Source of the DNA: Squalus acanthias
Taxonomy: Eukaryota
Direction: 5' to 3'
Length of the DNA: 64,000 nt
NCBI GenBank assembly: GCA_030390025.1
Contig: CM059431.1
Span: 138,262,001-138,326,000 of the forward strand
Below, in pieces: positions 1,573 to 53,697 of the stretch. The translations under genes and the position numbers were made by a program. Positions within the stretch are counted from its first letter, which is position 1; every line of letters begins with the position of its first letter. The notes below the pieces were generated by a model that did no database searches, was not told the origin of the DNA, and saw nothing but the letters and a program-made list of their open reading frames with translations.

Positions 1573-2316
1573 GTAAGATGAAAGCATTTATTTTATTCAT
1601 TTATTCCTTCTCAAGTAGATCACAATTTCCATATGCAATATTTTACTTTCACAACGCCTTTGGTAAAATGGGTTCCAGTCGCTATGTTTAGCGACATCAT
1701 CAATTAACTGATGGAGGTTAGTTCCCGTCACTGCTCGTAGCGAAATTTTAAACAACTTCAGCATGATCTCATGTAGAATTTCGCTGGGACTACTAACCGG
1801 AAAATAAGGTCCTGAGTATATTTATGAGCTATAATTTTAAACATTAATTCTGGGGATATGGGCCTCGTTAGCAAGGTCAGCATTTATTTCCCAGACCATG
1901 GCCCAGAAATTAAACACTGAGCGTTCCTGCGGGGGTAAGGCTTCCCCGCGATATCTCACTGCGTGCCTACCTTTTTCCTCCGGGCCCACACGAACTTTAG
2001 ATTCAAGGCTGCAGCTGTGCAGTGCTTGTGTGACCCAGAGACGCAGTTAGTTCGTGCGAGCTCTGGGATCACGTGATTCCATTAGAGCCAATGGCAGCAC
2101 ACCATCTTTCGTTCATAGTTTTGACAGGAAGGGCTGTCAAAGCTATGAATCTTACACACCCCCAAAAGAACAGCTAAACCTCAATTAAATTTAAAAAAAA
2201 GCCATCACATTAATAAAATAGTGGTCATGATGTGGACATGCCGGCGTTGGACTGGCGTGGACAAAAATGAGAAGTCGCACAACACCAGGTTATAGTCCAA
2301 CAGATTTATTTAAAAT

Positions 2317-2352
2317 TACAAGCTTTCGGAGCTGTCGCCCCTTCCTCAGGTA
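2317..2352 (-). ncRNA. Minimal hammerhead ribozyme motif in the inverted PLE pLTR
   Basis: Minus strand reads UAC-CUGAGGA-A-GGGGC-GACA-GCUCC-GAAA-GCUU-GUA: core boxes, 5-bp stem II, palindromic AGCU at stem III, 3-bp stem I. Confidence 0.75.
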
Positions 2353-2520
2353 GAGTAACTGTGAGAGAATCTATCAGAATTCACAGAATATAAACACAGA
2401 GAAAATGCATTCAAATCTTTCCCTACATAAATCCCTTAAATAAATCTGTTGGACTATAACCTGGTGTTGTGCGACTTCTCATTTTTGTCCACCCCAGTCC
2501 AACGCCGGCATCTCCACATC

Positions 2521-5199
2521 ATGACCACTATTGACACCGCAAACTGTCGGCTGAAAGTGGAGAGAGTCGAAAAGAAGATCGCGCATATTGACACAGACAT
2601 CATGTACCTGCAGAGATGCAAGAAAGCAGACAAGATTCCGAAAGGACTACAGATCACGAACCCACTCAAGTCGACATACAACACAGACTACGCTGAGAGA
2701 CTTTGCCTTCGTACCTCTCGCACACTCCTCAACCATCTCGTACACCAGCTCTACAGAAGACATCGCAACTTCGAAACCAAGATAGAGTCCATGCTCTCAG
2801 CCTGTGCTCAGGGCACAGCAGACCAGCTACGAGACACCGCCAAACAGACGAGGCAACGGAACTACACTGCCTACATGCGCATCAAGAGCAGGAAGCTTGA
2901 GAAACTCATCGTAACCACCAGCTGCAACCAAGCCTCCCCCGGTAACACGGTAGCAACCACAGGGAAGTCCATCGTCAACCTGTCGGACCAGACCCTTCAA
3001 CCAGACGAAATCGAAGTTCTCGCCCTAGGGCTCAAGTTCTGCCCCACCACCAAAATGGACCCCATCGGTCTCGCGGCGGACACAGAGGAATTCAACAGGA
3101 GAATGAGGATCCGGGAATACTACCACAAATCCCAAGATGTCAGCAACAAACCTAATGAGACAATCAATGATCCGGAACAGCAGACAGAGGGAACCGCAGT
3201 GCTACAACCGAGGAAGAAAGAGTCAAATTGGACCCCTCCGGAGGGTCGCTGCCCTAAGCTTGACATGTATGCTCAAGCTGTCAGGAAATGCATCAATGCC
3301 AGATTCATCAGCCGTACTCACAAGACAGTCCAGAATGTCACCCGAGCACAACGCAACGCCATCCACGCTCTCAAGACCAACCGCAACATCGTCATCAAAC
3401 CAGCGGACAAAGGAGGAGCCATCGTCATACAGAACAGAATGGACTATTGCAAAGAAGCATACCGACAACTGGACAACCAGGAACACTACAGACAACTACC
3501 TGCAGATCCGACCAAAGAACACACCCGCCAACTCAATAGACTGATAAAGACCTTCGATCCAGACCTTCAAAACATCCTACGCGCTCTCATCCCACGTACT
3601 CCCCGCGTAGGAGACTTTTACTGCCTCCCAAAGATACACAAAGCCAACACACCCGGACGTCCTATCGTATCAGGCAACGGAACCCTGTGTGAGAACCTCT
3701 CTGGGTACGTCGAGGGCATCCTGAAACCCATCGTACAGGGAACCCCCAGCTTCTGTCGCGACACTACAGACTTCTTGCAGAAACTCAGCACCCATGGACC
3801 AGTTGAACCAGGAACACTCCTCGTCACGATGGACGTATCGGCACTCTACACCAATATCCCCCACAATGACGGCATCGCTGCGACAGCCTCAGTACTCAAC
3901 ACCAACAACAGCCAATCTCCGGACGCCATCCTACAACTCATCCGCTTCATCCTGGACCACAATGTCTTCACCTTCGACAACCAGTTTTTTACCCAAACAC
4001 ACGGAACAGCCATGGGGACCAAATTCGCACCCCAATACGCCAACATCTTCATGCACAAGTTCGAGCAAGACTTCTTCGCTGCACAGGACCTCCAACCAAC
4101 GCTGTACACCAGATACATCGACGACATCTTCTTCCTTTGGACCCACGGCGAAGGATCACTGAAAGGACTACACGATAGCATCAACAGGTTCCATCCCACC
4201 ATCAAACTCACCATGGACTACTCCTCAGAATCGGTTTCATTCTTGGACACACGAATCTCCATCAAAGACGGACGCCTCAGCATTTCACTCTACCGCAAGC
4301 CCACGGACAACCTCACGATGCTCCACTTCTCCAGCTTCCACCCTAACCACGTTAAAGAAGCCATCCCCTATGGACAAGCCCTGCGAATACACAGGATCTG
4401 CTCAGACGAGGAGGAACGCGATGGACACCTACGGACACTGAAAGACGCCCTCGTAAGAACGGGATATGACACTCGACTCGTCGATCGACAGTTCCGACGG
4501 GCCACAGCGAAAAACCGCATAGACCTCCTCAGAAGACGAACACGGGACACAACCAACAGAGTACCCTACGTCGACCAGTACTTCCCCGGAGCGGAGAAAC
4601 TACGCCATGTTCTTCGCAGCCTTCAACATGTCATCGATGACGACGAACACCTTGCTAAGGCCATCCCCACGCCTCCACTACTCGCCTTCAAGCAGCCGCC
4701 TAACCTCAAAAGTACCATCATTCGCAGCAAATTACCCATCTTTCAGGAGAACAGCGACCACGACACCACACAACCCTGCCACGGCAACCTCTGCAAGACA
4801 TGCCAGATCATGGACACAGATACCGTCATCACACGTGAGGACACTACCCACCAGGTACATGGTACATACTCATGTGACTCGGCCAACGTTGTCTACCTGA
4901 TACGTTGCAGTAAAGGATGCCCCAGAGCATGGTACATCGGCGAGACCATGCAGACACTGAGACAACGTATGAACGGACACCGTGCAACAATCGCCAGGCA
5001 GGAGGGTTGCCTCCCAGTCGGGGAACACTTCAGCAGTCAGGGGCATTCAGCCTCGGATCTGCGGGTTAGCGTACTCCAAGGCGGCCTTCGGGATGCACGA
5101 CAACGCAAAATCATCGAGCAGAAACTGATAGCCAAGTTCCGCACTCATGAGGATGGCCTCAATCGGGATATTGGGTTCATGTCACGATACAGAACGTGA
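2521..5199 (+). CDS. PLE polyprotein: reverse transcriptase + Cys-rich linker + GIY-YIG endonuclease (~892 aa from ATG 2521)
   Basis: Uninterrupted ORF with IVNLS, IKPADKGGAIV, LVTMDVSALYTNIP, GTAMG, RYIDD, CHGNLCKTC linker, NVVYLIRC...YIGET...RMNGH. Confidence 0.95.
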   Translation: MTTIDTANCRLKVERVEKKIAHIDTDIMYLQRCKKADKIPKGLQITNPLKSTYNTDYAERLCLRTSRTLLNHLVHQLYRRHRNFETKIESMLSACAQGTADQLRDTAKQTRQRNYTAYMRIKSRKLEKLIVTTSCNQASPGNTVATTGKSIVNLSDQTLQPDEIEVLALGLKFCPTTKMDPIGLAADTEEFNRRMRIREYYHKSQDVSNKPNETINDPEQQTEGTAVLQPRKKESNWTPPEGRCPKLDMYAQAVRKCINARFISRTHKTVQNVTRAQRNAIHALKTNRNIVIKPADKGGAIVIQNRMDYCKEAYRQLDNQEHYRQLPADPTKEHTRQLNRLIKTFDPDLQNILRALIPRTPRVGDFYCLPKIHKANTPGRPIVSGNGTLCENLSGYVEGILKPIVQGTPSFCRDTTDFLQKLSTHGPVEPGTLLVTMDVSALYTNIPHNDGIAATASVLNTNNSQSPDAILQLIRFILDHNVFTFDNQFFTQTHGTAMGTKFAPQYANIFMHKFEQDFFAAQDLQPTLYTRYIDDIFFLWTHGEGSLKGLHDSINRFHPTIKLTMDYSSESVSFLDTRISIKDGRLSISLYRKPTDNLTMLHFSSFHPNHVKEAIPYGQALRIHRICSDEEERDGHLRTLKDALVRTGYDTRLVDRQFRRATAKNRIDLLRRRTRDTTNRVPYVDQYFPGAEKLRHVLRSLQHVIDDDEHLAKAIPTPPLLAFKQPPNLKSTIIRSKLPIFQENSDHDTTQPCHGNLCKTCQIMDTDTVITREDTTHQVHGTYSCDSANVVYLIRCSKGCPRAWYIGETMQTLRQRMNGHRATIARQEGCLPVGEHFSSQGHSASDLRVSVLQGGLRDARQRKIIEQKLIAKFRTHEDGLNRDIGFMSRYRT

Positions 5200-5430
5200 C
5201 TTGACATCGTTGCCAGTCTTTCCAGCTTTAAAAAAAAAAACAAACACAAGAAACAAACCCAACTGGAGAGGATATGCAGCCAGCAGGTGTTTTGACACGT
5301 TGGACCCCCTGGGACACATCTCATTGTCTTGGCTGTGCTCTTAGTGTGTCTTTGATGTAGGGAAAGATTTGAATGCATTTTCTCTGTGTTTATATTCTGT
5401 GAATTCTGATAGATTCTCTCACAGTTACTC

Positions 5431-5466
5431 TACCTGAGGAAGGGGCGACAGCTCTGAAAGCTTGTA
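5431..5466 (+). ncRNA. Minimal hammerhead ribozyme motif in the 3' PLE pLTR (C>T in the stem II closing pair)
   Basis: tac ctgagga a ggggc gaca gctct gaaa gctt gta. Confidence 0.7.
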
Positions 5467-6740
5467 ATTTTAAATAAATCTGTTGGACTATAACCTGGTG
5501 TTGTGCGACTTCTCATTAATAAAATAAGTATAGTTAAATAAATTAACCAATTTAAACAAAAAATTAAATTTTTGAAAAAATTTAAAATCTTTTTAAAAGT
5601 TATAAAAATAAACTTACCTTTCTTTAACGTCTCTAAAAAAGATAAACCTGTTGAAAAAAAATTTAAATAATACTTAATTAATTACTTACCTTGTTAAAAG
5701 AGGGTCTTACGCCTCCTTTCTTTATGTGTAAAATCTTCCATGCTTACCTGCGCGTTCAAAGCACTAAGTGCACTGCATGCGCGTAGCCTGTAGCGCGCAC
5801 GCGGTTGACTTAGGAACCGCCCCCTTTTGAGTTCACGAAGTGCCGGTTTCCCGCGCATGCGCAGTGCATGCTGGAAACCGGCAATTGGAGACCTAAAACG
5901 CTAGAGTACGCAGTGCGTACTCTCGCGTATTAGGTCTAATTTTCGGGCCCATTTCCCCTTGAGAAAATCGTGGCGCGCCTTCTCTTTGAACAGCTGCAAT
6001 CCATGTGGTGAAGGTGCTCCCACAGAGCTGTTAGTCAAGGATCTCAAAGGGTGTTGACTAAGCGACGATGAAGGACTGGCGGATATCTGTCCATGTCGGG
6101 ATGGTGTGTGACTTGGAGGGGAGTTGATGATATTCCCGTGCCTGCTGCCCTTGTCCGTGTGGGTTGTTGAGTTCGTGGGTTTCGGCGGCGGTGTTGAAGA
6201 ATCCTTGGAGTTGCTGCAATGCATCCTGCAGATGGTGCACACTGCAGCCACCGTGCGCCGGTGGTGGAGGGAGTGAATGGTCCACGGGAATATGTTGTTG
6301 GAGAATTTCCCCCGTGATTATCGTCGTAATAGAGGCTTGTTAGTCCGGCAGCAATAACTCAGCTCATGATACATGCACGAATGTGTTTTTTTTATAACAG
6401 CAAGCTTTATTACATTGAACAATAACAGTATTAGATTTTATATAACCGTTTTACAATATTATAGTAAATGACAAGATGACATGCAAAGTATAAAACCATT
6501 TTCCCCGGCCCGGAGCGCATCCGATTGGCTCTGAGAGCGCTCCCAACCCAAAGAGAGCCATCCAGCCCATGTTTCCCAGGCGTGGAGCGACCAGCTCCAT
6601 CCCTCCAGGACACCCGTGTGGCTGTGTGCCTCCTGACCAACCCGAGAACGCTCAGCCTTGGGGGCAAACTGGTTCTATTGTTATATGTTCCAGGTTTTGC
6701 CGAGGCCACGCTTTTAGGGGTTTACCCCGTTTTTCTTTGA

Positions 6741-9679: not shown

Positions 9680-10135
9680 AGAACTGTTTTTATACAATTC
9701 TCCTTTGAAAGTTATTATTGAATCTGCTTCCACCGCCCTTTCAGGCAGTGTAGTCCAGATCACAGCAACTCGCTGTATATTTTTTGTCCTCATGTCGCCT
9801 CTGGTTAATTTTCCAATGACCTTAAATCTATATCTTTGGATACGACCGATCTGCCACTGGAACCAGTTTCCCCTTATTTTATCTGTCAAACGCCTTCATG
9901 ATTTTGAACTCTTCGATCAAATTTAGCCCTTAATATTCTTTGCTCTAAGGAGAACAACCCCAGTTTCTCTAGTCTATCCACGTAACTGAAGTTTTTCATC
10001 CCAGGTACCTTTCCATAAAATATCATCTGCACCCTCTCTAAGGTTTAGACATCCTTCCGAAAGTGTGCTGCCTAGTATTAGCCGCAGTACTCCAGTTGAA
10101 ACCTAAGCAATGCTTTATACAGGGTAAACATAACT
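9680..10135 (-). mobile_element. Decayed CR1 3' fragment
   Basis: Minus ORF text RYRFKVIGK...QRVAVIWTTLPERAVEADSIITFKGEL. Confidence 0.7.
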
Positions 10136-10569: not shown

Positions 10570-10920
10570 TTTTTTAGAGTAAATAATGAAAAACTGATTC
10601 CAGTAGCAGAGGGTCGGTAACCAGAGGACACAGATTGAAGGTGATTGGCAAAAGAACCAGCGGGGGGATGTGGCGAATTCCTTTTTAACACAGCGACTTG
10701 TTACGATCTGGAATGCATTGCCTGATAGTATGGTGGAAGCAGATTTAATTCTAATTTTCAAAAGGGAATTGGATAAATACTTCAATGGAAAACAAATGTG
10801 GGGCTATGGAGAAAGAGTAGGCGATTGTCACTATTTGGAGATTTCTTTCATTGTGCAAGCACAGGCACGATAGTGCGAATGGCCTCCTTCTCTGCTGTAT
10901 CATTCTATCATTCTATGAAT
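10570..10920 (+). mobile_element. Decayed CR1 3' fragment
   Basis: FLTQRLVTIWNALPDSMVEAD...FKRELDKY and tail gaatggcctccttct...ttctatg. Confidence 0.75.
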
Positions 10921-16038: not shown

Positions 16039-17193
16039 CTAGGTTGGGTGTCCGAGGGGACCTCCTAGGAAGTGCTTTGGTGGGGCTACCCTGGCGAGCG
16101 GACCCTTGCCGTGGGTCGCAGTCCTCACTGGCTGGGGGCTTTTCCCATGTGGCTCCTCCCCTCCCAAGTCTGAGCTGGGGACAGACAATCCCTCGCTGCT
16201 TGCTGCCGTTGGCTTTGAGTCCTCGCCTCCAGGTTCAAAACCTGGGTCGGGGGTGGGGCTATCTGGTTCGGGCTCCTCCTCCTCCCTACCTGAGTCCCAG
16301 AAGAGAAGGGGGGTGTTTTGAACAGGGTTCTGGGTGACTCCTCCCTCAAGACAGGCCACTACGCCTGCTTGTGCAGTCTGTGAATTTGCAACTGCTGCAG
16401 GCTGAGGATTTCTAACCTGGGGGAAGTCCACCTTTGCCGGCTGTTCCCTTTTAGGTTTTAACAGTTTGCACTGGTCAGTCTCCCACTCGTGGGTTCTCTG
16501 GGGTTCTAACAGCAGCCCATCTTTCTGGTTCCCCAGGATACTGGCTGCTTGCCAGTGACTCTGTTTTAAAATCTCTTCCTCTGCCCTGAACCGACCTTCT
16601 AGGGACTCCCCATTCTCTCCCTTTACTAGGCCGGCCTTAAAGACGGGATTCTGGGGTTGGACCTGCTTTAAGTCCGGGGGCAAAGCTACCCCCTGTTTGC
16701 CTCCTTTATCCCGGATTGCAGCTACCGGACCTGCTTTAAAGGGATCCCAGAACTCTCTTTCCCTGGCCCCCTGCTTGGCCAATTTACCAGCCTTTTGGTT
16801 ACCCTCCCACTTTTTATGGAGGGATCCTAAATCTATGTCCAAAGGTTTGGACATTGCCCCAGCCTGCTTGTTCCCTATGATTCCCATTAAGCTGTACGGG
16901 ACCCCGTTAGACCTGGGTGAATTGCTCAGGTCTTCCGATTGGACCACCGGGCTGGCAGCTCCGGTGTCCACCAAACATCTCCCCTGCACTTTCTCCACCC
17001 CCTTCTTACCATCGTATCCCGGGGAATACAGGTGGACAGGCTGCGCTGGTTCTAGTCGTAGGTCTGCTTTAGGGGGGCCAGATGGGATTAAAGCGTCAGT
17101 GGCTGTAGCCACCTTCCCTGGGCCACCAAACAGGACTCTGATGGCCGCTACTATTGTGTACAGTGTGGGGGAATAGGTCGGTGCATCTACCTT
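16039..17193 (-). pseudogene. Protease fused in frame to RNase H C-terminus and pol tail (RT and IN core deleted)
   Basis: CLVDTGAASPVV...LMGIIG (aspartic protease) runs directly into EGNQKAGKLAKQGA (retroviral-type RNase H GN-xx-AD-xLAK motif), then a Pro/Glu-rich tail. Confidence 0.75.
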
Positions 17194-17273
17194 AACATAG
17201 AACATAGAACAGTACAGCACAGTACAGGCCCTTCGGCCCTCGATGTTGTGCCGAGCATTGTCCGAGACCAAGA

Positions 17274-20060
17274 TCAAGCTATCACACTCCCTATCATTCT
17301 GGTGTGCTCCATGTGCTTATCCAATAACCGCTTGAAAGTTCCTAAAGTGTCCGATTCCACTATCACAGCAGGCAGTCCATTCCACACCCCAACCACTCTC
17401 TGAGTAAAGAATCTACCTCGGACATCCCTTCTATATCTCCCCCCATGCACCTTATAGCTATGCCCCCTTGTAACAGCTGCCTCTACCCGAGGAAATAGTC
17501 TCTGAACATCCATTCTATCTATCCCCCTCATCATCTTATAAACCTCTATTAAGTCGCCTCTCATCCTCCTCCGCTCTAAAGAGAAAAGCCCCAACTCCCT
17601 CAATCTTTCCTCATAAGACCTCCCCCCCCAAACCAGGCAGCATCCTGGTAAATCTCCTTTGCACTCTTTCCAATGCTTCCACGTCCTTCCTATAGTGAGG
17701 TGACCAGAACTGCACACAATATTCCAAATGTGGTCTCACCAAGGTCCTGTACAGTTGCAGCATAACCTCACGGTTCTTAAACTCAAACCCTCTGTTAATA
17801 AACGCCAACACACCATAGGCCTTCTTTACTGCTCTATCCACTTGAGTGGCAACCTTCAGAGATCTGTGGATATGAACCCCCAGATCCCTCTGCTCCTCCA
17901 CGTTCCTCAGAACCCTGCTGTTGACCCTGTAATCCTTATTCACATTTGCCCTACCAAAATGAATCACCTCGCACTTATCAGGGTTAAATTCCATCTGCCA
18001 TTTTTCGGCCCAGCTCTGCATCCTATCAATGTCTCTTTGCAGCCTACAACTGCCCTCCACCTCATCACTACTCCACCAATCTTGGTGTCATCAGCAAATT
18101 TACTGATCCACCCTTCAGTCCCCTCCTCCAAGTCATTGATAAAAATCACAAACAGCAGAGGACCCAGCACCGACCCCTGTGGCACACCGCTGGTAACTGG
18201 TCTCCAGTCCGAAAATGTTCCATCCACCACCACCCTCTGCCTTCTATGAGATAGCCAGTTACTTATCCAATCGGCCAAATTTCCCTCTATCCCACAACTC
18301 CTTACTTTCTTCATGAGCCGACCATGGGGAACCTTATCAAACGCCTTACTAAAATCCATGTATACGACATCAACTGCTCTACCTTCATCTACACACTTAG
18401 TTACCTCCTCAAAGAATTCAATCAAATTTGTTAGGCAAGACTTACCCTTCACGAATCCGTGTTGACTATCCCTGATTAAGTTGCCCCTTTCCAAATGGTC
18501 ATAAATCCTATCCCTCAGGACCTTTTCCATTATCTTACCAACCACCGAAGTAAGACTAACCGGCCTATAATTACCAGGGTCATTCCTATTTCCTTTCTTG
18601 AAGAGAGGAACAACATTCGCCACTCTCCAGTCCTCTGGCACCATCCCCGTGGACAGTAAGGACCCAAAGATCAAAGCCAGAGGCGCTGCAATCTCCTCCC
18701 TTGCCTCCCAAAGAATCCTAGGATATATCCCATCTGGCCCAGGGGACTTATCGACCCTCAGGTTCTTCAAAATTGCTAAAACATCTTCCCTCAGAACATC
18801 TACCACCTCCAGCCTATCCACCTTTATCACACTCTCTTCCTCAAGAACATGGCCCCTCTCCTCGGTGAACACTGACGAAAAGTATTCATTCATCACCTCT
18901 CCTATCTCTTCTGACTCCATGCACAAGTTCCCACTACTGTCCTTGACCGGCCCTACCCTCACCCTGGTCACTCTTTTATTTCTCACATAAGAGTAAAAAG
19001 CCTTGGGGTTTTTCTTGATCCGACCCGCCAAGGACTTCTCATGCCCCCTCCTAGCTCTCCTAAGCTCTTTTTTTAGCTCATTCCTTGCTACCTTGTACCC
19101 CTCAATCGACCCAACTGAACCTTGTTTTCTCATCCTTACATACGCTTCCTTTTTCCTCTTGACTAGACATTCAACCTCTTTTGTGAACCATGGTTCTCTC
19201 ACTCGGCCATTTCCTCCCTGCCTGACAGGGACATACCTATCAAGGACACGCAGTAATTGCTCCATGAAAAAGCTCCGCTTTTCGTTTGTGCCTTTCCCTG
19301 ATAGTTTCTGTTCCCATCTTATACTCCCTAATTCTTGCCTAATCGCATCATAATTACCCCTCCCCCAATTATAAACCCTGCCCTGCCGTATGGCCCTATC
19401 CCTCTCCATTGCAATAGTGAAAGTTACCGAATTGTGGTCACTATCTCCAAAGTGCTCTCCCACATACAAATCAAACACTTGGCCCGGTTCATTACCCAGT
19501 ACTAAATCCAACGTGGCCCCACCTCTTGTCGGCCTATCCACATATTGTGTCAGGAAACCCTCCTGCACACACTGTGCAAAAACTATCCCATCCGAACTGT
19601 TTGACCTATAAAGGTTCCAATCAATATTTTGAAAGTTGAAGTCACCCATGACAACTACTCTGTGACCTCCACACCTATTCATAATCTGCTTTGCAATTTC
19701 TTCCTCCACATCTTTATTACTATTTGGGGGCCTGTAGAAAACTCCTAACAACGTGACCGCTCCTTTCCTATTTCTAACTTCAGCCCATATTACCTCAGAC
19801 GGCAGATCCCCGTCGAACTGCCTTTCTGCCGCTGTTAAACTATCCTTGATTAACAATGCTACTCCTCCACCTTTCTTAGCAACTTCCCTACTCTTACTGA
19901 AACATCTATACCCCGGAACTTCCAACAACCATTCCTGTCCCTGTTCTAACCATGTCTCCGTAATGGCCACCACATCGTAGTCCCAAGTACCAATCCACGC
20001 TCCAAGTTCTCCTACCTTAGTCCGGATGCTCCTTGCATTGAAGTAGACACACTTCAAGCC
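17274..20060 (-). pseudogene. CR1 ORF2 (APE endonuclease + RT) with two frameshifts (~18063, ~17625)
   Basis: [47 protein letters not shown] across three consecutive ORFs. Confidence 0.9.
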
Positions 20061-20170
20061 ATCTTCCTGTCTGCCGGTACATTCCTGCGACCTTGATACC
20101 CTCCTCAGTACCTCCCTACACTCACCACTGGCTCGTGGACTACAGCCCTTTTTACCATCCCCCAGACAAA

Positions 20171-21097
20171 TTAGTTTAAACCCCCCCGAAGAGCCGTAGC
20201 AAATTTCCCTCCCAGGATATTGGTGCCCCTCTGGTTCAGGTGCAAACCGTCCTGTTTGTACAGGTCCCACCTTCCCCAGAATGTGCTCCAATTATCCACA
20301 TAACTGAAACCCTCCCCCCTACACCATCCCTGCAGCCACGTGTTTATCTGCACTCTCTCCCTGTTCCTCAACTCGCTAGCACGTGGCACCGGCAACAAAC
20401 CAGAAATTACAACATGGTTTGTACTGGCTCTCAGCTTCCAACCTAGCTCCCTAAATTCCTGTTTTAAATCCCCGTCCCTTCTCCTACCTATGTCGTTGGT
20501 ACCGATGTGTACCACGACTTGTGATTGTTCCCGTTCCCCTTTGAGGATTCTGAAAACACGGTCCGAGACGTCACGGACCCTGGCACCCGGGAGGCAACAT
20601 ACCATCCGTGAGTCTCTTTTGCTGCCACAGAACCTCCTATCTGTCCCTCTGACTATTGAGTCCCCAATAACTATTGCTCTCCTGCTCTCCCCCCTTCCCT
20701 TCTGAGCCACAGGGACCGACCCAGCGCCGGAGATCCGGTCACCGTGGCTTACCACTGGTAAGTCGTCCCCCTCAACAGTATTCAAAGCGGTATACCTGTT
20801 ACTGAGGGGAACAACCACAGAGGATCCCTGCACTGACTGCTTCCTCCTAGCTCCTCTCACCGTCACCCATCTATCTTCATGCTTTGGAGTAATTACATCC
20901 CTGAAGCTTCTATCTATGACCTCCTCTGCCTCCCGAATGATCCGAAGTTCATCCAGCTCCAGCTCCAGTTCCCTAACACGGTTTTCGAGGAGCTGGAGAT
21001 GGGTGCACTTCCCACAGGTGTAATCAGCAGGGACACCTACGGCGTCCCTCACCTCAAACATTCTGCAGGAGGAACATTTCACTGCCTCCCCTGCCAT
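20171..21097 (-). CDS. CR1 ORF1p (zinc finger, leucine zipper, SGNH esterase-like), 308 aa
   Basis: CSSC...[27 protein letters not shown]. Confidence 0.9.
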
Positions 21098-21295
21098 CCC
21101 CTCCAGCTAACTTGCAGATTAAACTAGAACAAAAAAGAGCTTACCTGATAGTCACTCACCTCCTTTAGGTTAGAGGAGGAGGAAGGGTGGGGGACACTAC
21201 AAGTGTAGTGTCTCGGGTTAAGGAACCGCCCAACTTATATACAGGTAAAAATTACTCACCTACCCAGCAACCACTGCGTCCCGCACTTTAAACGC

Positions 21296-21515
21296 CTCTG
21301 TGGGCCTACCTGATCGCCGCCGCCTCTTAAGTCCTCCGCCTTGCCGCAGCCGCTCCACCCAGGTCCGCCGCCTCTGTGGGCCTACCTGGTCGCCGCCGCC
21401 TCTTAAGTCCTCCGCCTTGCCGCAGCCGCTCCACCCAGGTCCGCCGCCTCTGTGGGCCTACCTGGTCGCCGCCGCCTCTTAAGTCCTCCGCCTCGCCGCT
21501 TCCGCTCCACCCAGG
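21296..21515 (-). repeat. ~3 x 76-bp GC-rich tandem monomers in CR1 5' UTR
   Basis: ctctgtgggcctacc recurs at 21296, 21372 and 21448. Confidence 0.9.
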
Positions 21516-23198
21516 GGCAAAAGCTGGGGAATTCTTTGCTAGGCTATCCTTCCAGGGATTCCTACAGTCCTTTCTCCAGTGCCCAGTCTTCCCGCACCCG
21601 AAGCAGCTACGCTTTGTGTTGGAAGGTTTACCACCTTCCTGGTGCCACTCCTTCTTATCCTGACTGGGCTTTATCTCATGCACCTTCCCTTTCGGTGGGT
21701 TGTCTTCAGCTCCCCTACCGTTCCAGTAGGCTAGGGTCAGTTGCCTGACCACTGCCTCCTCGGTGACCCGGGGGTCTCTTGGGTCAAACCAAAGCTCAGC
21801 CTTGGCTTTGACTCGTGGCAAGCTGTTTGCCACTAGTCTACGAAGCCAGTGGGCCAGCTTGTCCCTGTTCAGGTTAGCCCTGTCTAGAGCCCCATTACAA
21901 GCACCCTTGTACACCGGCCACAGCCTGTCTGCGAAAGCCTGTGGGGTCTCCCCTGCGAGCTGCACTGTTTTCTCCACCCGGGAAAAAGGACTTCCCTCAT
22001 TCATTCCCATGGCCTCTAAAACTCCCTCTCTGACGGCAGCATACCCGTTCTGTCCTCTCTTTCTCTCAGTAGACAGGGACTAGTATAGTTTGCCATCTAA
22101 TGAGAACAGAAGCATTTTTGCCATCTTGGCATCATCACAGTCGTTGATGCCTGCTGTCTGCTCCACCTCCATGAAGTGGACAGAGGGGTCTTCCTTTTGG
22201 GTAAGTTTACTCAGGTGGCTTACCATAGCCCTAATCTGTTGTGTACCGTGGGGAGCCAAGAATTGACTTTCAAGGGTTCCCTGACCTCCACCACCGGCGG
22301 GCGGGCCGAATTTTTGCTGTCGTGCTGGGCACATTGGCCCTGGCTCCGACTTCTCCTGCATCGGTTTGCCCCCCTCTCCCTGCTGCCAGACCGAGTCAAA
22401 ACTCGGCGCCACAGCTGCTGGTGTGCACTCCCTTTCAGCCTCATAGATTTTCTGCCCCTCCTGCTGCCGAACCAAGCTTCTCCTTGGCGCCACAGGTGGT
22501 GGTCGAACAGTCTTCCCTTGCTCCTCCAGGTCTACCTGGGCCGCACCCGGGCTAATCAGGCACAGCATGCCTTTTGTCTCGGACAGAGCAAGGTTCAGAC
22601 TCTAAATCTGCTTCTGACAGGGGCCCTGGTCCCCGACCTCAAACTCCCTTGTACTGGCTTCTCTGTAAGCTGCCTGAACATCGTTTAACTTCTCTGTGAT
22701 ATCCCTTAATTGCTTGGCAAGGCGGGTGTTCTCTTCCCGCAATGCCAGTTCACTACTTTTGGCCTCGGTGGCCTGAAACTGGAGGTATCCCTTACTGGCA
22801 CGGTGTTCCTCCAGCATCTGTGACTGTTCCTGATCTTTTGTGCCTAGCTCTGCTAACAACCTATCCCCTGCTATAGCTCTGGCATGGGACAGTTGGCTTT
22901 CTTCCTTTAGCTCTTCTGTGATAGCCTGATTGCGCTTCCCCATAAGTTGTATTTGTTTCTGGGAGCAGACCAACCATATGGCTTTCTCCACAGACTTATT
23001 GTATTCCTTGCTCTCAGTCCATGCAGCTGCAGCGTCCATAGCACATTCAGCATGCAACAGCCTGAGGACACATTTCCTGGTGACATTTACTTTTTTGTAT
23101 ACAAAGGATGACATTCTCTCTCCTATTTTTGATCTCTCCTCAAAACCAGCATGTACTGCTCCACAACCCTTTCGGCAAAGTCCTGCCGCGGTCGCCAT
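21516..23198 (-). pseudogene. gag: gag-like ORF with two in-frame TAG stops (22602-22604, 22080-22082)
   Basis: ORFs 22602-23231, 22080-22568 and 21327-22010 share one frame: coiled-coil region, QLAGETPQAFADRLW (MHR-like), CFGCGKTGHWRKDC zinc knuckle. Confidence 0.85.
23180..23197 (-). promoter_or_regulatory. Primer-binding site complementary to tRNA-Arg(TCG) 3' end
   Basis: Plus strand GTCCTGCCGCGGTCGCCA matches, from memory, the 3' 18 nt (with CCA) of vertebrate tRNA-Arg-TCG; it lies 3 nt from the LTR end. Confidence 0.8.
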
Positions 23199-23200
23199 TA

Positions 23201-24466
23201 TGTAAGGGTTGGTAATGGGTTCAGCCTTCACTTTCTAACTCAGTGAGCGGTTCGAATCGCTCCCACGCCCCTCTGGTTCCTAGACGTTGGACTTATTTAG
23301 GGGTTGTGAACAAAAATGCAGTAGACAACAGGTTCTGGTGAAAGAATTTTGACTTTATTAAAAGAAAAAACGTACCAAACTTAAAACACACTTAATACGT
23401 AAACACAGATAGTGGAGCACACGGTACGGGCGAGGGAGAAAGACAATATACAAAACAAAAACCTTAACCCTCCCAAAGATCCCACTATCTAGCTAGGTTT
23501 TTGCTTTCAGGAGATCAGGGATAATGCTCACCAACGAAACCTTGACAGGATTTTAGAGTCTTTTGATTAAAAGATTTCGTAAGGCCCTTGTTGCTGCGAG
23601 GCGTCCGATGGTCACTGAGGCAGTCGCTCTGGTTTCTCCTTGTGTGCTGGTCTGTTTGCTGGCCTTCCTCCTCGTGGCTTGTAGTGGTTTTTGCTGGAGC
23701 AGGGAGAGAGCTGTGTCAGCGTAGTCAGCGAGTCCTAAAGAGAAACAAAAGTTTTGGGATAGGCTTTCAATTATACTGTCTTTTTTTCGCGTCCAAAAAC
23801 CCCTTACTAAAACGTTTCTTTTAGGTTTCAAATCAGCCTTGCTTAGTCCATTGTCTAGTTTTGGCGGGCTTGCCAGTTGCGATGGCTTTAGCTCAGTGTT
23901 AAACATGTCTTGATCGTTTTCCAATTTAACACAGCCTTATCTAAGCGCCAAATCGCAACCCTATGGTTCTACGTCTTTTGGCGGGCTTTTAAATCTGTCC
24001 CGTGGATACCTGGTTGATTGGTTTTTGATGAAGTACTAAATGTTTTATTGATTTCAGGCTTCTGGTATCCTGTTTGGGCCTGGGAATTTCAAAAGGGGGT
24101 CTTGGATTATTCATATTTCGATGTGTGTGTGAGGCTTTGGGTTTGTCTCTTCCTCCTTGGTAGGATTGCAGTGTAAACAATTCCCAGACAGCTTGATTGG
24201 GCCCCAATACCGAAAGCTGTTCACTGCCTGGCCACGCTCCTCCGCAGCCTGCCTTGTGTCTGTGAAAGGTGTCTTTCCCAACAGTAAGATTCAAAAGTGA
24301 TTTTCCTCAGGATTTTTCTTCCCTGATCTTTAAAATGTCCAAAACTGAGGTTTTTACATCAAATCACTTCACTTAGGTCCCATCATCCCAAGTTTGTATG
24401 AAAGGTCCAAAAATCACTCCCTTTAGGGCCCTGTTCGAGTTTCTGGGGGATTTTGCGAAGCCTACA
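23201..24466 (-). repeat. 5' LTR
   Basis: Direct repeat of 13805-15070, followed on minus by the PBS. Confidence 0.9.
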
Positions 24467-30738: not shown

Positions 30739-32262
30739 TCGGTCTCTAATGAAATAGCAAAACTACAATCCACGAATAAACCTTCCATGTACAGTCTCAA
30801 AGTAACTACAACAAACATATTATTAATCTATTAATGCAGCTGAGTCCTCTGACAAAAACAACAACTAGATAAGGTCAAACTAAAATAAAAATATGGCTAA
30901 TCCTTAGAGGTGCTGCCTTATTCATTAACTAGTTATATTCAAGCCCCTTGTTAACCGCTTAGTGAAACCAACTACCGATCCTCTAGTTAATGTTCAAACT
31001 CTTCCTTGCGCGCTCCAAACTCTGGCGAAGCCCTGTTTCACTCAGATAAGTCCGGATGAGGCATGACGTTCGGTCCATCGAGCAGATCAATCCACTGAGA
31101 CCCACAATCCTATCACAGCCTCTAGCTGCTCCTTGAACGGTTCAACAGTCTTCCGTCCATCCTAGAATATCAATTCAGTGACCAGTCAGCACAAGTATGA
31201 AGCATTGACACATGGTCAAGCTCTGGTCCTTTACCGCTCTGTACCCTTAAACCTGATTAAGATATTCCTTGTTTACCAAACCTCGTACCTTGCCAAACTC
31301 CACAGGTCCACAGTCTTAGAGGCGACCTGAGAGTTATATAAAATAATGAAAGGCATGGATAGAATGCCGAATGATAGGTTATTTGAGTTTGAGAGGATGA
31401 AGAGAACCAGGGGACAAGCATTTACATTACACTAGCATAGGAGCGTTTGGATTGCGTTGCCAGTTTGTGCGGTGTTTCCTGACTCTCTGCATCCCTTCAG
31501 CAGGGAGCTGGACTGGTCTTGGCTGGGCCAGAGATCGCCTCATGTTAAATATATATTGCTTAACTATTAACGTGCGCATGGCCACTGTGATCTACTGGAC
31601 TGGTTTCGATCGTCTGAGCGTGTCCGGGAGGATTTCCGGGAGGTAGAAAGCCCTGATGCTACAAGCCTGTGGGAGCAGGATTGATGGGCCAGCTGGGCTT
31701 TTCCTATCTTTGTATGTTCCTGCACCGCCATTAAGTTTTAACAGTGTGACTTTTCGCTGCACTTTCCCCGTGGCCGAGATCTCTGACACCGGATCGCGGC
31801 CTAGCAGCCTCCCTCTACCTCGCTCCCAGGAGTGGATGCTACCTTTCTGCATGAGTGACCAGAAATAAAGTCAATACCCAGGGTCAGTCCTGACTGGAGC
31901 ACATCACAGCTGCAGCATTAGAGCCTGAAACGTCATGTTTATTGGGATTTGTAGCTCAGTCCTCTGTTTGTTTGTTTGCTCAGTGTATCCGCTAACCTCA
32001 GTCACATCACCATTCATTAAATGCTCACTGATTAATCTGTCCTTCACAATCCGAGAGCAGTTTTGTGTTATATGATTTTCAAAGGCAGCCTTGCATTGAC
32101 AGAGCGCCTTTCACCAGCTCAGGTTATCACGAAGCAATTTACAGCCAATTCAGTACTTTTGAGACAAAAATAAAATACTGCAGATGCTGGAAATCTAAAA
32201 TAAAAACAGAAAATGCCGGAGATACTCAGCAGGTCTTGCAGCATCTGTGGAGAGATAAACAG

Positions 32263-32299
32263 AGTTAACGTTTCAGGTCGATAACCTTTCGTCAGAACT
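32263..32299 (-). ncRNA. Minimal hammerhead ribozyme motif in PLE2 left pLTR
   Basis: AGUU-CUGACGA-A-AGGU-UAUCG-ACCU-GAAA-CGUU-AACU; 4-bp stems I and II, palindromic ACGU. Confidence 0.75.
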
Positions 32300-32570
32300 G
32301 GAAAAAAGCAGGAAATGGAAAAGATATTTAAGCAAGTGTAGAGGCTGGGAAAGGGGAGCGGGGTTGAAAGAACAAAAGGGATGGTCTGTGATAGGATAGA
32401 AGGCAGGAGAGGTTAAGAGACATTAAGAGATAATGAAGGCAAAAGGAGATGGTAATGGGACAGGTTAAGAAACAAAGGAAGGCTCTAGATGAAATGTATA
32501 TTGCGCTGGCAGAATGAAAGTCAGCTGCCATGTGGGAGAGAAGAGAAGACACAAACAAAAAGTGTGGTTA

Positions 32571-33331
32571 GGCCCGAAAATTAAACCTAATACGCGAGAG
32601 TACGCACTGTGTACTCTCGCGTATTAGATCCCGAATTGCCGGTTTCCTGCATGCACTGCGGATGCGCGGGAAACTGGCACTTCGTGAATTGCAAAGGGGG
32701 CGGTTCCTAAGTGAACCGCGTGCGCGCTACAGGTTGTGCGCATGCAGTGCACTTAGTTTTTTTTCAGCTTTGAACGCGTAGGTAAGTGGTGAATATTTTA
32801 CTCATAAAAAAAGCAGGCGTAGGACCCCCTTTTAATAAGGTAAGTAGTTAATTAAGTGTTATTTTACATTTTTTTCAACAGGTTTACCTTTTTTAGAGAC
32901 TTTAAAGAAAGGTAAGTTTATTTTTATAACTTTTAAAAAGATTTTAAATTTTTTCAAAAATTTAAATTTTTGTTTGAAGTGGTTAATTTATTTAACTATA
33001 ATTATTTTATTAATGTGATGGCTTTTTTAAAATTTAATTGAGGTTTAGCTGTTCTTTTGGGGGTTTGTAGTATTCATAGCTTTGACAGCCCTTGCTGTCA
33101 AAACTATGAATGAAAGATGGTGTGCTGCCATTGGCTCTAACTGAATCACGTGATCCCAGAGCTCGCACGAACTAATTGCGCCTCCGGGAAACACACACAC
33201 TGCGCGGTTGCAACAAGAAGAGGCTCTGAACTAAAGTTCGTGTGGGCCCCAAACAAAAAGGTAGGCGCGGAGTGCGATATCGCGGGGAATCCTTACCCCC
33301 GCGGGAAGCATTGATGTTTAATTTCTGGGCC
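32571..33331. mobile_element. Harbinger/PIF-like MITE (761 bp), same family as 1900-5949, inserted in PLE2 pLTR
   Basis: TIRs GGCCCGAAAATTAAAC / GTTTAATTTCTGGGCC; flanked by TA; absent from the partner pLTR copy at ~35680-35700. Confidence 0.85.
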
Positions 33332-35980
33332 TATATATATATGATAGGGGCCGAGGTTATGATCTGAAATTGTTGAAATCCATGTTGAGTCCAGAGGTCT
33401 GTAAAGTGCCTAATCGAAAGATGAGGTGCTGTTCCTGAAGCTTACGCTGAGCTTCAGTGGAATAATGCGAGAGACCGAGGACAGTGTGGTTTGAGTGGGA
33501 GTGGAGCGCAGAATTAAAGTGACAGGCGACCGGAAGCTCGGGGTCCCAATTACGGACTGAACGGAGGTGTTCTGGAAAGCGGTCACCCAATCTGCGTTTG
33601 GTCTCCTCAATGTAGAGGATTCCGCATCGTGAGCAGCAAATACAGTATACTAAATTGCAAGAAGTACAAGTAAATCGCTGTTTCACCTGGAAGGGGTGTT
33701 TGGGGACCTGGACAATGGGAAGGGCGGAGGTATAAGTGCATGTGTTGCATCTCCTGCGCTTGCATGGGAATGTGCCGAGTGAAGGGGAAGTGTTGTTGTG
33801 GGTCATAGAGGAGTGGACCAGGGTGTCACGGAGGGAGCGGTCCCTTCGGAATCCTGATTGGGGAAGTGAGGGGAAAATGTCTTTGGTGGTGGGATCAAGC
33901 TGGAGGTGGGATTGTACATCCATAGTGAAAAGGAGGCAGTTGGGGCCAGGAAACTGGAAACTGTTAAAGTGGCAGAGGGCGTCTTAAGAGTCGCCGCTGT
34001 AGGTGGGAAGAGACTGGACAAGGGGAGAAAAAATAGAGTCGAGATAGGAAGAGATAAGTTCTGTGGGGCAAGAACAGGCTGAAACGATGATTCTACCAGG
34101 GCAGTCCTGTTTATGGATCTTGGGAAGGAGGTAGAAGCGGGCTGTGCGGGTTTGGGGAACTATGAGGTTGGCGGCTGTGGGGCGAAGATCTCCAGAGGAT
34201 ACGAGGTCAGTGACAGTGTTGGAAACGGTGGCTTGATGTTCGGTAGTTGGGTCAAGGTCCAGGCGGAGGTAAGAGGAGGTGTCGGAGAGTTGGCGTTCAG
34301 CTTCCGCGAGTTTCCAGTTTCTTGGTTCCAACCGCCTCCTTTTCACTATGGACATACAATCCCTCTGCACATACATCCCCCACCAGGATGGCCCTCGGGC
34401 GCTCCGCTTCTTCCTTGAACAGAGGACCAACCAGTCCCCATCCACCACCGCCCTTCTCGCCTGGCTGAACTTGTTCTCACGATTGAACAACTTCTACATT
34501 GACTCCACTCACTTCCTCCAAATCAAAGGTGTCGCTAATGGAAACCGCATGGGTCCTAGCTATGCCTGCCTTTTCGTGGGATAGGTGGAATACTCTTGGT
34601 TCCAGTCCTACTCAGGTCCCCTCCCTCAACTCTTTTTCCGGTACATTGATGAGTGTATCGGTGCCGTTTACCGCTCTCGCTCTGAAATAGATAATTTCAT
34701 TCACTTCGCTTCTAATTTTCACCATTCCCTCACCGTCACATAGTCCATCTCCGACTCTTCCCTTCCCTTCCTCGACTTCTCCTTCTCCATCTCTGGGGAT
34801 AGGTTATTGACAAACATTCACTACAAGCTCACTGACTCCCACAGCTACCTGGACTACACTTCCTCCCACCACACTTCCTGTAAGGGCTCAATTCCATTCA
34901 CGCAGTTTCCCCGTCTCCGCTCATCTGCTCTGACGATGCCACCTTCCATACCAGTGCTTCCAAGATGACTTCCTGTTTGCTCAACCGAGAATTCCCCTCT
35001 ACTGTGGTTGACACGGCCCTTGACCGTGTCCGTTCTATCACCCGCACATCTACCCTCATCCATGCCCCTGCCTCCCGGAACCATGATAGAGTTCCCCTTG
35101 TCCTCACCTTTCACCCCACCAGCCTCCACATTCAACGGATCATCCTCCGACATTTCCGGCACCTCCAGCTTGATCCCACCACAAAGCACATCTTCCCCTC
35201 ACCTCCCCTTTCGGTATTCTGAAGGGACTGCTCCCTCCGCGACACCCTGGTTCAAACCTCTATCACCCCCACACCCGTTCCGCTTCGCCCGGCACCTTCC
35301 CATGCAAGCGCAGGAGATGCTACACATGCCATTATACCTCCCCCCTTCACACTGTCCAGGGCCCCAAACACCCCTTCCAGGTGAAACAGCGATTTACTTG
35401 TACTTCTTGAAATTTAGTATACTGTAATCGCTGCTCTACATTGGGGAGTCCAAACGTAGATTGGGTGACCGCTTTGAGGAACACGTCCTTTCAGTCAGTA
35501 AGGGGGTCCCCGAACTTCCAGTCGCCTGTCACTTTAATTCTCCGATCCACTCCCACTCAGACCTCGCCGTCCTCGGCCTCTTGCATTGTTCCACTGAAGC
35601 TTTCGATTAGGCACTTTACAGCTCTCTGGACTCAACATAGAGTACAACAATTTTAGATCATAACCAAGGCCCCTATCATATATATATTTTGTATCCACAC
35701 TTCTTGTCTGTATCTTGTTCTCTTCTCTCCCACATGGCAGCTGTCTTTCATTCTGCCAGCGCAATTTACACTTCATCTAGAGTCATCCTTTGTTTCTTAA
35801 CCTGTCCCATACCATCTCCTTTTGCCTAGAAAATCTCTTAATATCTCTTAACTTCTCCTGCCTTCTATCCTATTACAGAACTTCACTTTGGTTCTTTCAC
35901 TCCCCGCCCCCCCCCCCGCCCCACCCCTTTCCCAGCCCCTACACTTGCTTAAAAATCTGTTCCATTTCCTGCTTTTTTCC

Positions 35981-36016
35981 AGTTCTGACCAAAGTTCATC
36001 GACCTGGAACGTTAAC
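35981..36016 (+). ncRNA. Degenerate hammerhead motif in PLE2 right pLTR
   Basis: agtt ctgacca aagttcatcgacct ggaa cgttaac; core positions mutated. Confidence 0.5.
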
Positions 36017-36449
36017 ACTGTTTCTCTTTTTAACAGATGCTGCCCGACCTGCTGAGTATCTCCAGCATTTTCTGTTTTTATTTCAGTACTTTTGCGGTGC
36101 GGTCACTGTTGTAGTGCAGTACATGTGGTAGCCAATTAGGGCACAGCACAATCCCACACTGTAATAATCACCAGATAATCTGTTTACATGTTGTTGTTTG
36201 AGGTTAAATATTGGCGAGATCGCCGGGGAGAATTCCACTGCTCTTTTTCTCAATAGTGCCATGGGATCTTTAACGTCCACCCAAGAGCTCAGAGAAGGCA
36301 TCGATTTAACGTCTCGTCGGGAAGTCTCCAGCAACATAGATTGTTGATTCAAATCATCTTCTCATGGCAACTTTGATTATCAGTAACTGGCTACATCATT
36401 GAATGAACTTTAAAAATGTGAACGGTTTTGAATAGATTAGATAGGTGGT

Positions 36450-43996: not shown

Positions 43997-44095
43997 TTCT
44001 AACGAAAGGTTTCAACATGAAACGTAAACTTTGTTTTCCTCTCCACAGATAATGCTTGTCCTGCAAAGTATTTCCAGAATGTTCTGTTTTTATGC
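43997..44095 (+). mobile_element. Solo degenerate PLE2-family pLTR fragment (hammerhead remnant) in GPCR intron
   Basis: ttctaacgaaaggtttcaacatgaaacgtaaact...ctccacagat...ttctgtttttat matches 35985-36080; absent from the paralogous intron at ~57690. Confidence 0.6.
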
Positions 44096-44544
44096 AAGAA
44101 TATAGTGTCAGTGGCGATAGCGATGGAAATTCATTCGGAAGAGATGTATCATGGTCGGCTGATACGGAGTCGCCCGTTTTACACTGTCGCCCAAAGTCAA
44201 AATTCCCCTCGGTTGAGCCATCAGTGCCTGGTTGTCGGTGGTGTTGGGGTCGCTATCCGTTACCATTGCCGATACTGAATACGAGCGACCCTCCCAGCAC
44301 CAACCTCCACCCACCGGCTTGACACAGTCTGACTGAAGTGTGCTGGAATGCTGGCGCATTCTCACTCCCTCGATATTGGGTGTTTAATGAGTATTTTCAT
44401 TTGAAAAGGTATACTGTCAATGCTCGACTATATTGTAAGGTGGGCATAACCTTAAGTAGGAAAACAACGGTTCATCTCCCCACAATATGCTGTCAGATTT
44501 ATCTGAGCGTCCCCGTTATTAAGTCGTGTCGCTCTTTCTTACAG

Positions 44545-45452
44545 CGAACCTATTGACAATTGTGATTCTCTCCAGAGGAAAATGCGGCCTTTCCAAATGT
44601 ATCTCGGTCTACATGGTGGCCATGGCAACAGCAGATCTACTGGTCATGATCGTCAATGTAATCGTATATCATATTTTTAGTAAACTCTTCCCATATTCAT
44701 TCCTGTCCTACACTCCTGTTTGTAAGTTCATGATGTACATGTCTTGTACCAACCTGGATATGTCGGTGTGGTTTACCGTCTCCTTCACATTTGATCGATT
44801 TGTAGCTATCTGTTGTCAGAAGTTTAAAACAAAGTATTGCACAGTGAGAACTGCGGCCGCGGTTATAACAACGGTCTCTGTCCTGGTTTATTTAGAGAAC
44901 ATACCCTTTTGGTTTGCCTTTGAACACAAACAAATAATCAACAATGTTCCTTGGGATTTCGTCCCAAGTATGGCCTTTTATACATCGCCTGCAGGTGTAG
45001 CTTTCTCCCAGTTAGAAAATATTTTAATTACATATATTCCTTTTGTTTTGATATTACTGTTTAATTGTTTGACAGTCAGACGTATTTTAGTCGCCAGTAG
45101 AGCCCGCAGGGGACTCCGGGGTCACAGCAGTGAGAATCAGAGCGATCCAGAGATGCAGAGCCGAAGGAAATCCATCATTTTACTGTTCACTGTATCGGCC
45201 AGTTTTGTATTGTTGTGGCTGTCAGTTGCCGTGAATTCTGTAGTTAAGAACATCGTGGTTTTTCACCGACCCGATTATACATCTCCTGCATACATCGCCA
45301 CTGAAACCGGATATATGCTCATGTATTTGAGCTCCTGTACAAACACGTGTATTTATGCAGCTACCCAAACTAAATTCAGGGAAGAGCTGAAGAAGGTGGT
45401 GAAATCTCCTTCGACATTGATTCTGATATTTGTTAAAAAAATGAAAAATTAA
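44545..45452 (+). CDS. GPR139/GPR142-like class A GPCR, exon 2 (spliced protein ~325 aa, intact)
   Basis: ttacag|CG AAC: ANLLTIVILSR, MATADLLV, SVWFTVSFTFDRFVAIC, IPFVLILLFN, RKSIILLF, TNTCIY. Confidence 0.9.
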
Positions 45453-50870: not shown

Positions 50871-51204
50871 GAATCCAGTCAAATTATCGCATCAAATACC
50901 GAGCATTTTGCCAAAAATTAAACGGTGCCCTTTAGCTTGATAGAATCTCACCTTGAAAAAATCCTGTACTGATGGGATTCTCAGCCTTTCCAATCATTGA
51001 TGAAGCTTCCTGGTTTATGCCGTCTTGTCCAATGTGAGTGTTGGTCACACCAGGTCTGTTCTGTGAAACCAGAGACGTTTCTCTAGTCCCAGTGAGTTCA
51101 TAAAATCAGCGTCAGTTCTTTATATTATCGGCCCGCACCACAGAAAACACTCCTGACCCCGCAAAAGTGGCAGGAAATTCCCCTTAGAGAGACCACATTG
51201 GCAC

Positions 51205-52129: not shown

Positions 52130-52561
52130 GCCGTCCCAGCATAGTGTTAGAGTCTGAAAATGACACCCCGGGAGATGCTGGGTTGATTCAGATTCTTGCA
52201 GAATGACTGGAACCAAGTCAGAGGCGGCGGACCTGGGTGGAGCGACAGCGGCGAGGCAGCGGCTGTAAAAGAGGCGGCGACCAGGTAGGCTTACCAATCT
52301 GAGCCCCGAGAGCGGGAGAGAGAGAAGTAGAAAATAATCAAAGTGTGACGTCACCAGAAAGCAGGTAAGTGATTGGTTGGTGAGTATTTCTCTTTTTCTC
52401 CTGTGTTCCATACTTAAATTCTGTGGTTTATAGTTTCTAGAGTCTCTGTGGTGTAGCGGGGACTGCTGTTAAGCAAGGGTCCTTGAGTATATCATTTAAT
52501 TGAAGTGATATTGGTGGGATTCAATTAGTTTAATTTTAATTAATTAATTAAAGGGTAAGTC

Positions 52562-53512: not shown

Positions 53513-53697
53513 AGTGGCAGGGGGTTGGGAACCTGAGCAGGGAGACAGAGGAAAGGGAAATAAGGATAAAAGCTAAAGACAGGAAGGAGAAAAACAAAAG
53601 TAGAAGGCAAAGAACTCAACGGTTTAAATAAAACATGGTCACAGTAAATAACAATTAATATAGGTCTGAGAGCGTTAAAAAAACAAGCCTGAAGGCT

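Follow-up and report, generated by a model that had tools for sequence, protein, structure and literature searches.

A young, well-preserved Neptune-type Penelope-like element in Squalus acanthias with conserved hammerhead motifs and head-to-head arms

The Penelope-like element (PLE) described here, PLE1, which lies in a 64,000-nucleotide stretch of the Squalus acanthias genome (the window), is young, intact, and well preserved, and its layout is the arrangement typical of published PLE insertions. Its hammerhead ribozyme (HHR) is an ordinary motif already described for PLEs, and it is probably under selection in the source elements. The forward arm of the insertion begins close to the equivalent of the predicted cleavage site, and the preliminary description of this sequence had taken that as a sign that the copied RNA was processed by self-cleavage. 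In our judgement, the start of the arm is probably an ordinary stop-and-join point in an AT run rather than the end of a self-cleaved RNA.

The coding region consists of a single unbroken open reading frame (ORF) that combines a reverse transcriptase (RT) domain (RVT_1, E = 1.1e-8) with, at the C terminus, a GIY-YIG endonuclease bearing the CCHH residues (Table 1). Together with the inverted pLTR arrangement, the tail at one end, and the short target duplication, this is the build of an endonuclease-bearing (EN+) PLE, and the earlier identification of an intact PLE is borne out. The GIY-YIG and C/C/H/H residues were placed by motif and alignment; the PLE1 protein itself gave no Pfam match for them, and PF01541 matches many of its homologues. 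The CX2-5CxxC linker cysteines are invariant in 21 of 21 aligned proteins. Because PLE1 has the CX4CxxC form of this linker, it groups with the Neptune-type PLEs as these are defined in the available text of PMC8557442, an assignment made by linker motif rather than by tree, with Nematis having the same linker. Shark proteins (92% and 85% identity) are the nearest named ones, ahead of elements from turtle and invertebrates. No relative of solved structure was found (one chance match had E = 0.96), NCBIfam returned sub-threshold RT models only, and viral contigs held no relatives. Neither metagenome contigs nor viral contigs contained a match to the pLTR core pattern (0 in each).

PLE1 agrees with the Neptune clade as summarized in PMC8557442 (citing Arkhipova 2006) in its single RT plus GIY-YIG ORF, its DKG motif, the CX2-5CxxC linker, an HHR in the pLTR, an inverted 5'-truncated copy, and a tail at one end. 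It departs from that clade in two ways. The direct 5' pLTR is reduced to 48 nt, without an HHR and without the upstream part that holds the D. virilis promoter, and the target is AT rich rather than a (TA)n microsatellite. As the forward arm is without the upstream pLTR part, the intact ORF may lack its own promoter.

Published PLE insertions comprise an inverted 5'-truncated copy, a tail at one end, and duplications of 8 to 10 bp in the portions available of PMC3846280 and PMC8557442, and the typical layout also appears in PMC2377424. PLE1 sits in a member (1900-2220 plus 5515-5950) of a MITE-like repeat family with short terminal inverted repeats. A second member (32561-33345), which sits in another PLE in the window (PLE2), provides an empty-site comparison: in this uninterrupted paralog of the host repeat, near 33000, the 12-bp target sequence is present only once. 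The inverted arm of PLE1 starts 109 nt upstream of the predicted cut, runs through an uncut HHR, and reaches with its 49-nt tail into the beginning of the ORF; it differs from the 3' pLTR at 1 of 163 nt and, within the tail, at 2 of 49 nt. The forward arm (2436-5517) equals one 3034-nt unit plus 48 nt, the latter visible as a direct repeat (2436-2483 = 5470-5517). Position 2436 is equivalent to 5470, and 6 nt (5464-5469) are therefore missing after the predicted cut. The forward copy thus does start about 6 nt past the equivalent of the cut, as had been described, although what lies at 2436 is a head-to-head (inversion) junction containing filler rather than a free 5' end. We rejected the filler as a templated copy, as no match of at least 8 nt lies inside the element.

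The 3' ends of the two arms coincide with two ATT triplets (element positions 2481-2483 and 2529-2532), the sole ones in 2436-2586; we estimate a rough chance of 0.006 for both. The overlap of these ends with the target duplication suggests short pairing between primer and RNA at the RT start. Around the junction, a 97-bp inverted repeat of 98% identity (2217-2313 and 2436-2532) would give a long hairpin in read-through RNA; sub-threshold Rfam matches to miRNA were rejected as being this repeat.

Table 1. Features of PLE1 and of related sequences in the window (coordinates in nucleotides of the window; residue numbers for the 892-aa protein)
Feature	Position	Strand	Details
Target-site duplication, left copy, 12 bp	2209-2220	+	Identical to 5515-5526; overlaps 3' end of inverted arm by 4 nt (2217-2220)
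Inverted arm	2217-2428	-	5'-truncated pLTR (equivalent to 5355-5517) plus 49-nt tail (equivalent to 2484-2532)
Minimal type-I HHR, inverted pLTR arm	2317-2352	-	C3 2349, H17 2320; predicted cut between 2320 and 2319; G10.1-C11.1
Head-to-head junction filler, 4-7 nt	2429-2435	.	
Forward arm start / 5' UTR	2436-2520	+	6 nt downstream of HHR cut equivalent
ORF, 892 aa, intact	2521-5199	+	RT, Neptune-type CX4CxxC linker, GIY-YIG endonuclease
RT motifs in 892-aa ORF	DKG 296-298, D438, YIDD to D535		
Linker cysteines in 892-aa ORF	C753/C758/C761		
GIY-YIG endonuclease residues	Y792, Y805-G807, R816, H820, H836, E866, N881		
3' UTR and 3' pLTR	5200-5517	+	Ends at first RT start site, without tail
Minimal type-I HHR, 3' pLTR	5431-5466	+	C3 5434, H17 5463; predicted cut 5463/5464; U11.1 (G-U) replaces C11.1
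Target-site duplication, right copy, 12 bp	5515-5526	+	Overlaps 3' end of forward arm by 3 nt
PLE2, decayed	32149-36094		Head-to-head arms, 80-85% identical where alignable; joined at ~34305-34336, inside RT region
PLE2 target duplication, 13 bp	32149-32161 and 36082-36094		
Solo PLE2-type pLTR	43997-44093	+	Damaged HHR; similarity starts 2 nt upstream of C3, the 5' edge of the ribozyme

PLE2 is built like PLE1, with head-to-head arms, a longer left end, and a target duplication. Its left arm is broken by the MITE-like repeat, its HHR copy near 35980-36010 (plus strand) is degenerate, and its right end overlaps its own duplication, with 4 of 5 nt matching the other arm. The rest of the window holds further repeats and gene-like frames. 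Two 91-nt inverted arms (9686-9776 and 10690-10780; 79%), 913 nt apart, possibly delimit another small DNA transposon. Judged from ORF translations, broken gag-like (CCHC) and protease-like frames occupy 16039-23234 (minus strand), split by a CR1-type LINE (17274-21106), and two frames resembling seven-transmembrane receptors, the one 309 aa long and the other partial, lie on the plus strand at 44523-45452 and 58081-58584. A ~90-nt tandem repeat that contains open frames (51125-52468) is followed by a near-complete CR1-type LINE (52559-56497, plus strand), with an esterase-like ORF1 and with endonuclease and RT in separate frames.

The HHR motifs of PLE1 are located where the preliminary description had placed them. 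A stricter HHR descriptor produced 3 matches in the 64-kb window versus 0 in 100 third-order Markov simulations; the third match belongs to the decayed and unrelated PLE2 (C3 at 32295, minus strand). Dissection of both PLE1 motifs gives CUGAGGA, one extra A, a 5-bp stem II, GAA, the palindrome AGCU, U17, and a 3-bp stem I, so that the core CUGANGA...GAAA...UH with stems I and II, by which minimal type-I HHRs of PLEs are recognized, is present. Both also have the palindromic 15-16 segment, which permits dimers, and the extra nucleotide at 9/10.1, and the palindrome and overall build support the earlier reading as a dimer-type minimal hammerhead. That both pLTR copies bear an HHR holds for the motif itself, but the upstream copy proved to be inverted (2266-2431 versus 5352-5517, 99%). 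The extra A and U17 recur in PLE2, as had been noticed, and there the palindrome is ACGU. Each of the five PLE arms in the window carries an uncut HHR-derived motif. The search with hammerhead models envisaged in the preliminary description gave a negative result: Rfam gave 0 matches at the gathering score across the whole window, and none of the 10 matches at E <= 10 over 2200-2600 belonged to a hammerhead family.

A pyrimidine-rich run followed by CAG lies directly before the HHR in PLE1 (5411-5424, plus strand; 8 of 12) and in PLE2 (just upstream of 32297, minus strand; 11 of 12), reminiscent of the Penelope intron of D. virilis, which ends directly at helix I. We do not put forward a general splice acceptor before the HHR. 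Such a run is clear in PLE2 (11/12 pyrimidines) and in 1 of 12 relatives (10/12) and is weaker in PLE1 (8/12), at a background of 5%.

Because the two HHRs of PLE1 lie on opposite strands, a single transcript of the locus cannot form an intramolecular dimer, and the sense transcript has one HHR only. In silico, the active dimer fold of the PLE1 HHR is disfavored (-15.1 kcal/mol computed for the double-HHR fold versus -26.4 kcal/mol for the minimum-energy dimer). An active fold away from the computed minimum is in line with the weak or protein-assisted cleavage of published work.

The preliminary description had regarded the extra A and U17 as non-canonical and as hinting at a conserved variant class. 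We reject a new class, since the extra nucleotide has already been published and both features are common in relatives. Metazoan PLE minimal HHRs (min-HHRs), including those of fish Neptune elements, are described in the available text of Cervera & De la Pena 2014 (PMC4209133) as having a recurrent nucleotide between 9 and 10.1, G10.1-C11.1, and a palindrome, a description repeated in PMC6155905 and PMC6765202. We surveyed the best 80 of 496 related loci, in which the descriptor matched 12. Among these 12 HHRs, 9 have the extra A, and position 17 is most commonly U (U in 6, C in 4, and A in 2). The NUH rule permits U at position 17. Within the PLE1 family, U17 is changed to C in 47 and 67 contigs of two runs (~4% and ~16% of depth).

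The likeness to the min-HHRs of PMC4209133 includes the type I build without a real stem III, the palindrome at 15.1-16.1, the unpaired nucleotide at 9/10.1, G10.1-C11.1, and the pLTR site. The stems of PLE1 (3 bp for stem I and 5 bp for stem II) are shorter than those of the S. mansoni examples given there (4-5 and 7-8 bp), and the 3' copy of PLE1 has a private G-U at 10.1-11.1, unlike the min-HHRs in that source. At 2328, the equivalent of U11.1 of the 3' copy, no variant reaches 1% in the family, and the G-U is probably a later mutation. There is no shark entry in one searched supplementary file of PMC4209133; a 2026 preprint (10.64898/2026.07.22.740005) describes HHR-bearing retrozymes in its single sampled chondrichthyan.

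Family variation across the 231-nt stretch 2205-2435 was assessed with contigs of three sequencing runs (9462, 10267, and 20 contigs) that had passed an 85% likeness filter, so that divergent copies were dropped. Variants reach at least 1% at 22 places in this stretch, and those inside the 36-nt HHR are confined to N7, two loop-II bases, and position 17. With positions classed after the variant table had been seen, none of the 29 constrained positions has such a variant, against 4 of the 7 free ones (p = 6e-4) and 14 of the 43 in the flanks (p = 4e-4); the comparison with the downstream flank by itself (4 of 20) gives p = 0.02. This pattern points to selection, probably acting on the dimer-type HHR in the source elements, rather than to activity. 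One contig of run X1 (depth 92.9) joins 2312 to 2380, a family variant that skips 67 nt, with 6 other letters instead, and in which the whole HHR is gone.

We propose that PLE1 arose by a single insertion of a young Neptune-type PLE into an AT-rich spot of the MITE-like host repeat. The endonuclease would have nicked both target strands, 12 nt apart, and from each nick reverse transcription would have been primed at one member of a pair of internal start sites separated by the 49-nt tail, probably aided by 3 to 4 nt of pairing with AUU in the RNA. Of the two resulting cDNAs, one would have measured ~3.08 kb and the other ~0.21 kb, and their far ends would have been joined with a few filler bases. 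The HHR would be a conserved, weak ribozyme, dependent on dimers or protein. The layout of PLE1 fits what the available text of PMC11167929 reports for PAc, a PLE of the Poseidon type from Anolis carolinensis: RT starting at two internal sites, both strands being cleaved and extended, and a preference for ATT.

We consider it rather unlikely that, instead, the template RNA was cut at the upstream HHR, with the 3' HHR left uncut, and that the long cDNA ran off the 5'-OH end, with a loss of 6 nt as the two arms were fused. An uncut 5' HHR does not follow from read-through of the 3' HHR, and no other arm among the five in the window has the length needed to meet a second (upstream) HHR, whereas the forward arm does and stops 6 nt short of the cut. 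The arm measures 3082 nt where a 5'-cut template would allow a maximum of 3088 nt. If an end may fall anywhere in the 200 nt between the 5' limit of the inverted arm and the ATG, the chance of one 0 to 6 nt from the cut is 3.5%, and it is 10.5% for a post hoc window of +/-10 nt (21 nt). The conserved HHR core (variants at none of the constrained positions and at most of the free ones) also favors a cut template. Against it stands that this is one case (n = 1), noticed post hoc, and that the junction contains filler and falls in an AT run. Four of the five recognizable 5' ends in the window lie away from the cut: the inverted arm of PLE1 at -109, both PLE2 arms in the RT region, and the solo PLE2 pLTR at the 5' edge of the motif. 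Published experiments also count against this alternative, at least as far as the available texts go. In PAc, uncleaved RNA was the dominant substrate, no RNA-seq reads started at the cut, and HHR mutants left insertion unchanged (Frangieh et al. 2024, PMC11167929), and cleavage by min-HHRs is poor even in dimer form (PMC4209133).

The family data lean against a 5' end set by cleavage as the rule, with cleavage possible in a subpopulation. In runs X1 and X3, which come from one organism, the summed contig depth, a quantity distinct from copy number, drops by a factor of more than 10 at the 5' edge of the HHR (~2352), and a fall this steep at that place means that a large share of copies keep the whole motif. 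Abundances fitted with 31-mers, a rough deconvolution in which this word length fitted best and 36 and 42 fitted worse with unstable profiles, differ between the runs: in X1 they are level across the cut (134 versus a mean of 126), a lack of any step that tells against a cut template, and in X3 they show a graded but ambiguous fall (168 to a mean of 70), which may speak in its favor. Both runs have an excess of sequence ending between ~2295 and 2320, which could represent mini-copies derived from the cut or diverged sister subfamilies. One contig of run X17 departs from the reference at 2315 and continues into an intact HHR variant of its own. Among the 18 of 233 loose-end places listed, 5'-side loose ends of X1 and X3 are found at 2352-2356 (14, 2, 18, and 6 contigs) or farther upstream, at 2409, 2410, and 2428, and none at 2313-2320; 3' ends, among the same places, cluster at 2258-2268 (27, 45, 52, and 71 contigs). 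In the HHR-bearing loci among the best 80 of 496, the repeats mostly start at contig base 1, as in collapsed assemblies, and are of no use for locating 5' ends. RNA run X21, from another organism and with ~12% of its reads used, had 0 reads on 2205-2435, too little for a test. No RNA run among the 23 listed is recorded as a carrier of the sequence, and 4 of these 23 runs were compared with the 231-nt stretch. In the literature searched, which left most subscription papers outside, no paper ties the 5' ends of PLE copies to the HHR cut or twin priming to PLEs.

A circular template, already proposed in PMC4209133, is very unlikely: RNA cleaved at its two HHRs and re-ligated into a circle of ~3034 nt, with RT running slightly more than one lap and stalling before the refolded ribozyme, would account for a forward arm of one unit plus 48 nt and is compatible with HHR-bearing copies because re-ligation restores the motif, but one circle predicts an identical tail and 5' UTR, and these differ at 2 of 49 nt, albeit a weak objection. 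A stop-and-join point at 2436 is, as a matter of judgement, the reading that we carry forward.

PAc, in the available text of PMC11167929, resembles PLE1 in its two 3' end positions a short tail apart, its AT-rich target with ATT, and the use of both strands. It differs in that it is without the Neptune linker by clade definition, in that its HHR overlaps the start of the ORF whereas that of PLE1 lies in the non-coding pLTR, and in that its priming is described as non-homologous whereas the ends of PLE1 overlap the target duplication by 3 to 4 nt. R2 carries an HDV-like ribozyme (PMC6765202). This ribozyme has a role in processing the 5' end. Under the self-cleavage model, the PLE HHR would act like it; R2 belongs to another ribozyme and element class, and by this analogy a fixed, ribozyme-made 5' end in PLE1 is a proposal only.

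According to the available text of PMC8557442, it is unclear what hammerheads do in endonuclease-bearing PLEs. PLE1 is a further well-preserved example of the described arrangement, and its clean target duplication, together with the uninterrupted paralog, lets the two priming junctions be read at single-base resolution. With its conserved core, the very abundant, young shark family lends itself well to a map of where ORF-spanning copies end on the 5' side. On the boldest reading, which we regard as improbable, the locus would be the record of a whole transposition, in which a protein dimer primes both strands through 3 to 5 nt of pairing at start sites one tail length apart, and the long cDNA runs off a 5' end made by the upstream HHR, with the 3' HHR uncut. 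If true, this would count as genomic evidence for an in vivo role of PLE hammerheads in fixing where full-length copies end on the 5' side, and for priming guided by micro-homology rather than non-homologous.
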